This document shows, piece after piece, positions 5,701 through 8,700 of a DNA stretch of 64,000 nt; within the stretch, counting starts at the first letter, position 1, and every line of letters starts with the position of its first letter. Source of the DNA: Escherichia coli (GTDB lineage Bacteria; Pseudomonadota; Gammaproteobacteria; Enterobacterales; Enterobacteriaceae); assembly GCF_013122565.1 (NCBI RefSeq), contig NZ_CP053258.1; one strand, written 5' to 3'. A program made the position numbers.

Positions 5701-8700
5701 TGAAAACGGCGCGTATTCTGACCGTCTGCGTGGCGGTAATGTTGCTGTTGAGCGCATGGGGATTGTTCGATTTCTGGAACTGGCTGCAAAACGGCGCGGG
5801 GCAGAAAACCGTAGATATCCTGATCCGTATCGCACTCATTCTTTTCTTCTCGGCGGTTGGCTGGACAGTGCTCGCCAGTTTGATCGAAAACCGGCTGGCT
5901 TCGGATATTCATGGCCGCCCGCTACCCAGCGCCCGTACGCGTACCCTGCTGACGCTGTTCCGTAACGCGCTGGCGGTGATTATCAGTACCATCACCATCA
6001 TGATTGTGTTGTCGGAAATCGGCGTCAATATCGCGCCATTGCTGGCAGGTGCCGGGGCATTAGGTCTGGCTATCTCGTTTGGTTCGCAAACGCTGGTGAA
6101 AGATATTATCACCGGGGTATTTATTCAGTTTGAAAACGGCATGAACACTGGAGATTTGGTGACTATCGGGCCGTTGACCGGCACTGTGGAACGGATGTCG
6201 ATTCGCTCCGTGGGCGTGCGCCAGGATACCGGGGCGTACCACATCATTCCGTGGTCTTCGATTACCACCTTTGCCAACTTTGTCCGCGGCATTGGTTCGG
6301 TAGTGGCAAACTACGATGTTGATCGCCATGAAGATGCTGATAAAGCCAATCAGGCACTGAAAGATGCGGTAGCGGAATTAATGGAAAACGAAGAAATTCG
6401 CGGGCTGGTTATTGGTGAACCGAACTTTGCCGGGATTGTCGGCTTAAGCAATACCGCGTTTACACTGCGTGTTTCGTTCACCACGCTGCCACTCAAACAG
6501 TGGACGGTCCGCTTTGCCCTCGACAGCCAGGTGAAAAAACATTTCGACCTGGCAGGTGTTCGCGCGCCAGTGCAGACTTATCAGGTGCTGCCTGCTCCGG
6601 GCGCGACCCCGGCTGAACCGTTACCGCCTGGGGAGCCAACGCTTTAACGCTGGCGATTGACAAAACGGCGGCGCTGCTCGTCGTTCATAAAGGTCCAGGC
6701 AATAAAGCGACTCTGCTTTTGCCCCTGGGCCATCTCTTTTTTAACCACCTTCACCGCGCCCACGTCCGTCAGGGCACGATACAACGGCGGTAAGTTTTCA
6801 CCACGAGATACCAGTGAAGTAAACCACATCACACGCTTCGCGAAGCCTTTGCTCTCTTCAATCATCTTTTTGATAAAGGTGACTTCACCGCCTTCACACC
6901 ACAACTCCTGTTGCTGGCCACCAAAGTTCAGTGCATCGTCTTTGTTCAGCCCCAGGTTACGGCGTTTACGCTCACTACCTGCCCGCGCCGCAGCGGCGGA
7001 ATTGTGGAATGGCGGGTTACACAAGGTCGCGTCGTATTGCTCGTTTTTATGGATGATGCCGTTAAAAATCGCCCCACTCTCTTTTTGCCGACGCAGACGA
7101 ATGGCGCGATTAAGCCCCGGATTAGCACTGATGATCGCCTGCGCACTGCTTAACGCCTGGCTGCTGGTTTCACTACCGGTAAAACGCCAGCCATATTCAT
7201 GTACGCCAATCAGCGGATAAATACAGTTCGCACCAACGCCGATATCAAGAATGCTGGCATTCGCTGGAATTGTTCCGCTTGCTTCTGCCAGTAAATCGGC
7301 AAGGTGATGAATATAATCCGCCCGGCCCGGTACTGGCGGACAGAGAAAACCGTCCGGGATATCCCAGTTCGCTACGGCGTAAAAATGGGCCAGCAACGCC
7401 TTATTGAGCGCCTTCACCGCCAGCGGATTGGCAAAGTCTACGCTTTGCTCCCCGGCGGGTGTAAGCGTGAGGAATTGCCTGAGTTCAGGATTGACCTGAC
7501 AAAGCGTGGCGAGATCGTAGCGGCTGTGATGACGGTTGCGCGGATGCAACCCCGGTTTCTGGGCGGACATAGCATTCTCCTTTAAGCAGCGGCGTAAGAT
7601 ACCCGCATAACGCGACAGGGTAAATATCTGGCTGCGTTTATCATTCCCCAAAACCTTAACATGGCTATGGTTTATGGCAATTCATCATAAAAATCAGCAT
7701 TATGCATGTCATTGATTTGTCTTATTTTGTAAAAATATATCGTTCAAAAAATAAGCATATCTCTGTCAATTTTTTGCGTCATTTTCATCGCCCAAGCGAC
7801 CTACACTTATCAGGCACTACCCGTTGTATTTATGAGGATGTCATTATGAAAAAGTGCCTCACACTACTGATTGCCACCGTCCTGAGCGGAATCTCTCTCA
7901 CGGCTTATGCCGCGCAACCGATGAGTAACCTGGACAGCGGTCAGCTACGGCCCGCCGGTACCGTTTCGGCAACTGGCGCATCAAACCTAAGCGATCTGGA
8001 GGATAAACTGGCAGAAAAAGCGCGCGAGCAAGGCGCGAAAGGTTATGTCATTAATTCCGCAGGCGGAAATGACCAGATGTTCGGTACTGCAACCATCTAC
8101 AAATAACCCCACCAACGTAACTGCATTCGCCTCTGGATGCAGTTTTCGTCTGTTTTGTAATCAAAAAACATCAAATATGAACGCAATGTAAATAAATGTA
8201 TTTCTTTTTCGCACAATGGGTGATAGAAAATCGCGCCAAGTGATAATGCTTATCAAAATTATTATCACTTGCACGAGTACTATCACGAGATTAACAGTGG
8301 CATCGCATCCGCAGAGAGGCTTTCTCGTGGCAGTGAAAATTTCAACATATAAGAAAAAGTCACCTGCAAAATGGAAAACAATCGCAATTTCCCTGCCAGA
8401 CAATTTCATTCGCTCACGTTCTTTGCCGGTCTTTGTATTGGCATCACGCCTGTGGCTCAGGCACTCGCCGCCGAAGGGCAAACTAACGCGGATGACACGC
8501 TGGTTGTCGAAGCATCAACGCCTTCGCTTTATGCGCCACAACAATCTGCAGATCCGAAATTCTCGCGTCCGGTAGCGGATACTACCCGCACGATGACGGT
8601 GATTTCTGAACAAGTGATTAAAGATCAGGGCGCAACCAACCTTACCGATGCGCTCAAAAACGTCCCCGGCGTGGGTGCGTTTTTTGCGGGTGAGAACGGT

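Follow-up and report, generated by a model that had tools for sequence, protein, structure and literature searches.

Results

Two Pairs of Convergent Genes Share Bases at Their 3' Ends

The ends of two pairs of convergent genes of Escherichia coli, ybiO/rlmF and ybhR/ybhQ, whose coding sequences (CDSs) overlap tail to tail, were analyzed together with the signals by which their transcripts may terminate. Both pairs are located in a stretch of 64,000 nucleotides (nt) of contig NZ_CP053258.1 (assembly GCF_013122565.1), referred to here as the window. It is a segment of the E. coli chromosome, reversed relative to MG1655 (about 786–850 kb) and not K-12; the closest match was strain PapM-32-1 (99.4%), and most genomes matched at 95–99%. 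Coordinates were converted as window = 849902 − MG1655 near ybiO and window = 853458 − MG1655 near ybhQ. The CDSs were taken from the open reading frame (ORF) listing, RefSeq and Pfam, and the overlaps from the sequence itself:

4422–6647, + strand: ybiO CDS, MscS-family mechanosensitive channel, 741 aa, stop TAA at 6645–6647
6644–7570, − strand: rlmF CDS, 23S rRNA m6A1618 (N6-methyladenosine) methyltransferase, 308 aa, stop TAA as the reverse complement of 6644–6646
6644–6647, both strands: stop/stop overlap ybiO/rlmF, TTAA, 4 nt, phase (123:213)
27350–28456, + strand: ybhR CDS, ABC-2 exporter permease, 368 aa, stop TAA
28418–28828, − strand: ybhQ CDS, PF11076 inner-membrane protein, 136 aa, stop TGA
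28418–28456, both strands: dual-coding overlap ybhR/ybhQ, 39 nt, phase (123:321)

The TTAA at 6644–6647 gives TAA on either strand, and the 39-nt overlap comprises the final 12 codons and the stop of both ybhR and ybhQ. The same geometry was found in the RefSeq annotation of PapM-32-1 (ybiO/rlmF), of strain 48 (ybhR/ybhQ) and of MG1655 (rlmF 842332..843258, ybiO 843255..845480; ybhQ 824630..825040, ybhR 825002..826108); both overlaps were present in public annotation beforehand. All four products fit the expected Pfam families almost end to end. The C-termini keep their length in other genera and, hence, neither overlap is an artefact of ORF calling. Both pairs are true convergent overlapping CDSs, on opposite strands and with 3' ends that share bases, as had been stated in a preliminary description of the window and as is now confirmed by the ORFs, the sequence, RefSeq and conservation.

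The ybhQ and ybhR Transcripts Terminate in a Rho-Dependent Manner Within the Partner Gene

The window is identical to MG1655 over positions 28350–28480, so the published Term-seq and Rho data carry over directly to this junction. The following features were located:

28378–28410, − strand: end of the ybhQ mRNA within ybhR, hairpin 28410–28384 followed by the 3' end at 28378 (Term-seq and folding)
28276, − strand: Rho-region peak for ybhQ read-through, antisense to ybhR (Adams et al. 2021; coarse resolution)
28529, + strand: Rho-region peak for ybhR read-through, antisense to ybhQ, 73 nt beyond the ybhR stop (Adams et al. 2021; coarse resolution)

The primary 3' end of ybhQ was reported at MG1655 825080 (+) in two Term-seq condition tables (Adams et al. 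2021, PMC7815308). This position, window 28378 (−), is reached 40 nt after the ybhQ stop and is located 79 nt within ybhR. The preliminary description had proposed 3' end mapping as a check, and for this pair the published data place the end of ybhQ inside ybhR, past the overlap. In the same study, Rho regions peaked at MG1655 825182 (+), antisense to ybhR, with a Rho score of 3.95, and at MG1655 824929 (−), antisense to ybhQ, with a Rho score of 3.85; these coordinates are coarse and approximate, and the comparison windows were of 800 nt. Furthermore, inhibition of Rho by bicyclomycin raised the read-through of both ybhQ and ybhR (p about 1e-7). These published data indicated that termination at ybhQ/ybhR is Rho-dependent on both strands.

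The stability of hairpins was judged throughout by free energy (dG) and by z against shuffled sequences. The 3' end of ybhQ lies 6 nt after an 11-bp hairpin (28410–28384; dG −19.2 kcal/mol, z −2.6) that is not followed by a U tract, and a hairpin with a 3' end but no U tract is the signature of a Rho-terminated RNA trimmed to a protective stem. The RNA past both stops is C-rich and G-poor; the C/G ratio amounts to 2.45 over the 80 nt that follow the ybhQ stop, and to 1.3–2.5 past the ybhR stop. Taken from the Term-seq and Rho data, the ybhQ and ybhR transcripts are mutually antisense over roughly 150 nt or more. A scan for consensus terminators returned nothing convincing at this junction. A palindrome at 28486–28500 (−) was rejected as a terminator, being located inside ybhQ, upstream of its stop, and lacking a proper U tract.

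Additionally, an ORF-internal 3' end was reported 60 nt into ybhQ (MG1655 824690 (+), window 28768 (−)), with an intrinsic-terminator score of 4.9 and a Rho score of 0.6 (Adams et al. 2021, PMC7815308). These scores suggest that some ybhQ transcripts are terminated prematurely.

A Candidate ybiO Terminator Is Embedded in the Coding Sequence of rlmF

Downstream of ybiO, a candidate terminator was found inside the partner gene:

6692–6743, + strand: candidate intrinsic terminator of ybiO in rlmF codons 277–293, hairpin 6692–6731 and U-rich tail AUCUCUUUUUU at 6732–6743

This element begins 45 nt (6692) and finishes 96 nt (6743) downstream of the ybiO stop, and it is identical in MG1655 (843210–843159). 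In the ybiO sense the hairpin has a dG of −20.8 kcal/mol and a z of −3.55, and none of 200 shuffled sequences was as stable. The opposite strand of 6692–6731 folds more weakly (−16.5 kcal/mol, z −0.74) because the stem uses G-U pairs. Among the T6 runs of the window, 77 on the two strands together, the most stable upstream hairpin was that of the ybiO candidate.

The same region stood out in a comparison of synonymous codons, carried out on a codon alignment of 71 rlmF sequences in windows of 15 codons. The lowest synonymous diversity anywhere in rlmF was observed at codons 278–292, where the normalised entropy was 0.405 vs. a gene mean of 0.673. For codons 277–293, 9.4 bits were observed vs. 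14.7 ± 1.2 expected for the same amino acids in the rest of rlmF, a value as low as this being reached in none of 100,000 resamplings (p < 1e-5). This stretch of low diversity coincides with the hairpin and the U tract, and 92% of the cells of the proposed stem are paired across 70 sequences. Judged from these sequence features, it is most likely that ybiO transcription ends at an intrinsic terminator located inside rlmF.

The 3' End of rlmF Lacks a Recognisable Terminator

A further hairpin was found at the ybiO/rlmF junction itself:

6636–6655, − strand: rlmF-sense RNA hairpin of 8 bp whose loop holds the stop codon, GCCAGCGU-UAAA-GCGUUGGC (folding)

Its dG is −12.8 kcal/mol (z −4.95) on the − strand and −7.1 kcal/mol (z −1.46) on the + strand, which is the ybiO sense, and it is only partly conserved outside Escherichia. 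The next 130 nt of the rlmF-sense RNA also fold strongly (z −4.16), without a U tract. This folded RNA past the rlmF stop was rejected as a conserved signal, since synonymous diversity is not lowered in the 3' coding region of ybiO and the YbiO tail is variable in protein sequence. Neither folding nor the synonymous diversity of the 3' end of ybiO revealed a conserved or recognisable rlmF terminator. The likeliest situation is that the rlmF ends are heterogeneous and probably Rho-dependent. Searches of Rfam gave no family at either junction, and none of ybiO, rlmF, ybhR and ybhQ appears in the supplementary tables of TERMITe.

Both Junctions Are Conserved Beyond Escherichia coli

The conservation of the rlmF/ybiO junction was scanned with RlmF in one genome per species. 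This yielded 80 loci, in 70 of which ybiO was the convergent neighbor. The two genes overlap in 50 of these 70 Enterobacteriaceae loci, by 4 nt in 32 of them. The stop-to-stop distances were distributed as follows:

−38 nt: 2 loci, Phytobacter
−26 nt: 1 locus
−11 nt: 12 loci, Kosakonia, Pseudescherichia
−6 nt: 3 loci, Klebsiella oxytoca group
−4 nt: 32 loci, Escherichia, Citrobacter, Salmonella, Pseudocitrobacter, Trabulsiella, Yokenella, Superficieibacter
0 nt: 6 loci
+2 to +8 nt: 5 loci
+34 to +58 nt: 9 loci, Enterobacter, Leclercia, Silvania

The tetramers TTAA, CTAA, CTAG, and TTAG were all found among the −4 loci. Single transitions at the outer positions interconvert them while both stops are kept, which fits a neutral picture. 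In the nine loci with spacers of 34–58 nt, the spacers contain palindromes resembling repetitive extragenic palindromic (REP) elements, e.g., GCCGGGTAAGGCGAAGCCGCCACCCGGC, with dG values of −18 to −32 kcal/mol, and these same loci tend to have a decayed form of the hairpin within rlmF. In E. coli strain HN68 (NZ_CP141844.1), a 146-nt junction query matched only from position 65 on and in two places, a pattern seen in few E. coli genomes. It suggests that the junction of rlmF and ybiO was rearranged or took up an insertion in this strain.

The ybhR/ybhQ overlap had the same length in all the genera compared. Among 5423 E. coli genomes, 5363 match the 131-nt junction at an identity of 99% or more. 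In Salmonella, Citrobacter, Leclercia, and Enterobacter, the YbhQ homologues are 136 aa long and the overlap is once again of 39 nt (ybhQ 1501–1911 and ybhR 1873–2979 in all four loci). When the five genera are aligned, no variation is seen in the core of the overlap or in the 3' arm of the hairpin downstream.

Other Features of the Window

Between dinG and rhlE (16928–21220), about 4.3 kb were found in place of the K-12 ybiA region. In matching RefSeq genomes this segment carries espX2, for a type III secretion effector, and a hypothetical gene; of 5426 complete E. coli genomes, only 156 contain it at full length. The glnQ-ybiO spacer (4306–4421) has 116 nt with the hairpin CCTCCCTTTCACCCGAAAGGGAGG, where K-12 has 260 nt with two REP elements instead; within this spacer, a region of Rho termination was reported at MG1655 845551 (−), i.e., at about 4351 in the window (Adams et al. 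2021, PMC7815308). Three Rfam matches scored above the gathering score: a Moco riboswitch upstream of moaA (39405–39549, −), naRNA4, which is REP-derived (12244–12314, +), and the small RNA ES036 (40814–40855, +). Peaks of the sigma-28 and sigma-E holoenzymes inside the ybiO ORF, at about MG1655 844530 in an older coordinate version, were reported by genomic SELEX (systematic evolution of ligands by exponential enrichment; PMC5493296). They are possible internal or antisense promoters and were discarded as a junction feature because they lie mid-gene in ybiO and not at the junction.

Discussion

Convergent CDS overlaps are common in E. coli. Fifty-eight have been counted, with a peak at exactly 4 nt that stems from the 4-nt sequences CTAA, TTAA, CTAG, and TTAG (Lillo & Krakauer 2007, PMC2174442), and among the roughly 6 convergent junctions annotated for this region in MG1655, 2 show an overlap. 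At the level of transcripts, 276 of 370 convergent operons (about 75%) have complementary 3' ends, with a mean overlap of 286 nt (Conway et al., PMC4161252), which suggests that overlap is the default state. Both ybhQ-ybhR and rlmF-ybiO are listed among the 165 convergent excludons of MG1655 in Table 1 of ExcludonFinder (Sanmartin et al., NAR 2025, PMC12288877), under the criterion of overlapping RNA-seq coverage in at least 50% of 58 MG1655 samples. The two overlaps are therefore real and ordinary, and were annotated and catalogued previously. The sole new element is the candidate ybiO terminator inside rlmF with its footprint of synonymous constraint.

The antisense 3' ends claimed in the preliminary description are supported for both pairs by the excludon catalogue, and for ybhQ/ybhR also by Term-seq and the Rho regions. 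They are close to a logical necessity, since a translatable mRNA must include its own stop and the stop lies in the overlap. A full-length mRNA necessarily covers the overlap, and so transcripts ending before it, which had been named as the refuting observation, are unattainable. The accompanying claim that there is no room for independent terminators is misleading in that form, since the signals sit within the partner CDS, as the Rho regions and the protective hairpin at ybhQ/ybhR and as the candidate hairpin and U tract for ybiO.

We consider it probable that these are two ordinary and evolutionarily stable tail-to-tail overlaps in which each transcript ends in the CDS of its partner. The 4-nt overlap would arise because the reverse complement of TTA or CTA is a stop codon, and the arrangement could persist neutrally, as the four YTAR tetramers are mutationally connected and both stops survive; the 39-nt overlap is a conserved dual-coding segment. 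With no intergenic DNA available, each transcript ends inside the coding sequence of the other gene. At ybhQ/ybhR, this is shown by the published data: termination by Rho takes place on either strand after the ribosomes have departed at the stop codon, leaving the ybhQ RNA with a 3' end 6 nt beyond a stable hairpin. For ybiO, we infer that the hairpin and U tract 45–96 nt past the stop would end transcription and restrict antisense RNA into rlmF to about 100 nt. The rlmF transcripts would probably end heterogeneously, either through Rho or after exonucleases have trimmed them at hairpins rich in GC. The antisense overlap itself would be a tolerated by-product.

Several observations weigh against this interpretation, most of them against the ybiO terminator. 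Covariation in the stem is weak, with compensatory change in 2 of 14 pairs (one of them, from A-U to G-C, in eight sequences of about four genera), and was not used as primary evidence. The weaker hairpin of the loci with an intergenic REP-like palindrome (−11.9 kcal/mol on average vs. −17.9 in the others; p = 5e-4, Mann-Whitney) speaks for the terminator, but this contrast is confounded by phylogeny, as most of the spaced junctions belong to the Enterobacter/Leclercia clade. The tail AUCUCUUUUUU has 8 U in 12 nt, and its U6 run starts 5 nt after the stem, behind an AUCUC spacer, which is a non-canonical layout. The candidate region also encodes a conserved protein motif. The scan for consensus terminators did not report the site and found nothing convincing at the ybiO/rlmF junction. 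A search by gene name and coordinate in the three conditions of Adams et al. 2021 gave no 3' end or Rho region within MG1655 843000–843599; the missing ybiO ends are probably due to low expression in those conditions, so that this is weak evidence. More generally, the Rho-region coordinates are of low resolution and the ExcludonFinder calls depend on the coverage threshold.

Other explanations were weighed against the same data. The chance that one ORF of each pair is over-extended and that no true overlap exists is negligible: only the general tendency of long overlaps to be mispredictions speaks for it, and it was rejected given the full-length Pfam matches, which confirm frames whose stops are fixed by the reading frame, the conserved C-terminal residues EPT of YbiO, and the 136-aa YbhQ, the 368-aa YbhR and the same 39-nt overlap in four other genera. 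A cause of the low synonymous diversity at rlmF codons 277–293 other than a terminator, be it local selection on codon usage, a structured element or binding site of the rlmF mRNA itself or mutational bias, is rather unlikely. It would fit the preferred codons AAA, GAG, CAG, CGC, and GCC, which are also common in E. coli, as well as the weak covariation and the lack of a mapped ybiO 3' end in the tables of Adams et al. 2021. Nevertheless, the test compared matched amino acids from one gene and one set of genomes, the constrained stretch corresponds to the hairpin plus U tract, and the fold is strand-specific through its G-U pairs (−20.8 vs. −16.5 kcal/mol, z −3.55 vs. −0.74). Very unlikely, in turn, is a bidirectional termination driven by collision, in which the TTAA-centred near-palindrome at 6636–6655 would pause converging RNA polymerases, and head-on and trailing collisions would end both transcripts. 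The mechanism has been described for hundreds of E. coli convergent pairs, and an inverted repeat encoding a hairpin (z −4.95 in the rlmF sense) lies exactly at the junction; however, that hairpin is stable on one strand only and no more than partly conserved outside Escherichia, dense traffic would be required on two genes, ybiO and rlmF, that are weakly expressed (no Term-seq peaks), and the termination of ybhQ/ybhR is Rho-dependent, unlike that of the collision class.

A regulatory role of the overlaps is possible, and transcriptional interference or RNase III processing may, hypothetically, take place at either pair. That the overlaps are kept as functional convergent excludons for reciprocal regulation, in which RNase III would cut the duplex, the cleaved partner would undergo non-stop decay or transcription would interfere, appears distinctly unlikely. 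Under this explanation the induction of ybiO (or ybhFSR) would lower rlmF (or ybhQ), and vice versa. Both pairs are catalogued, excludon pairs are more syntenic than other neighbors (PMC12288877), adjacency and a tight junction are conserved across many genera, and another mechanosensitive channel offers a precedent, as the arfA antisense RNA regulates mscL (PMC10070815). On the other hand, convergent excludons could not be validated by p19 capture of double-stranded RNA (PMC12288877), the geometry of the rlmF/ybiO junction varies (−38 to +58 nt), no link is evident between the functions of the four genes, and the overlap of 75% of convergent operons points to a default state. A conserved embedded terminator that shortens the antisense RNA would argue for limiting interference, not for exploiting it. 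A more specific form, in which the rlmF/ybiO junction and the embedded terminator act as a stress-responsive switch upon RpoS-dependent or osmotic induction of ybiO, is highly doubtful. If it were true, antisense RNA covering about 100 nt, the final ~30 codons of rlmF, would lead to RNase III cleavage and to non-stop rlmF messages, 23S rRNA m6A1618 methylation would decrease in stationary or high-salt cells, and a second channel-linked antisense circuit, analogous to mscL-arfA, would exist.

The comparison with known systems places both pairs among described classes. The ExcludonFinder convergent excludons (PMC12288877) are the same object, with identical gene pairs and the same proposed consequences, interference and RNase III cleavage, although that work gives no locus-specific analysis, 3' ends or junction conservation for them. 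The ybiO/rlmF junction is a textbook TTAA member of the 4-nt stop/stop class (PMC2174442), with relatives that use all four tetramers, whereas the ybhR/ybhQ overlap, in phase (123:321), falls into the less common class of at least 5 nt. In mscL-arfA (PMC10070815), as in ybiO/rlmF, a mechanosensitive-channel gene is convergent with a small unrelated gene, the 3' untranslated region (UTR) and the 3' CDS complement each other, and the junction distance varies among Enterobacterales. Antisense regulation and RNase III sites were shown experimentally for mscL-arfA, whereas for ybiO/rlmF they are hypothetical.

The end of ybhQ resembles the Rho-dependent ends that are shortened as far as a stem-loop (Dar & Sorek 2018; Adams et al. 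2021) in its 3' end 6 nt past a hairpin without a U tract and in its bicyclomycin-sensitive read-through; unlike in that class, the ybhQ 3' UTR lies entirely inside the CDS of another gene. A convergent pair and a hairpin-encoding palindrome, at the ybiO/rlmF junction, are shared with the overlapping bidirectional terminators (Ju et al. 2019; Wang et al. 2022 preprint). That class, however, is Rho-independent and intergenic, while here there is no intergenic DNA, the ybiO/rlmF hairpin is one-sided and ybhQ/ybhR depends on Rho, so that neither pair belongs to it.

As convergent CDS overlaps and overlapping transcription are well documented in E. coli, these findings carry little weight as a discovery. 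Their added value is that published 3' end data settle the proposed check for ybhQ/ybhR, and that a termination signal may hide in the CDS of the partner gene, where it would leave a measurable footprint of synonymous constraint, as in rlmF. Furthermore, from genus to genus the 4-nt junction moves between the four tetramers that keep both stops, an example of why overlaps of this class are so stable.

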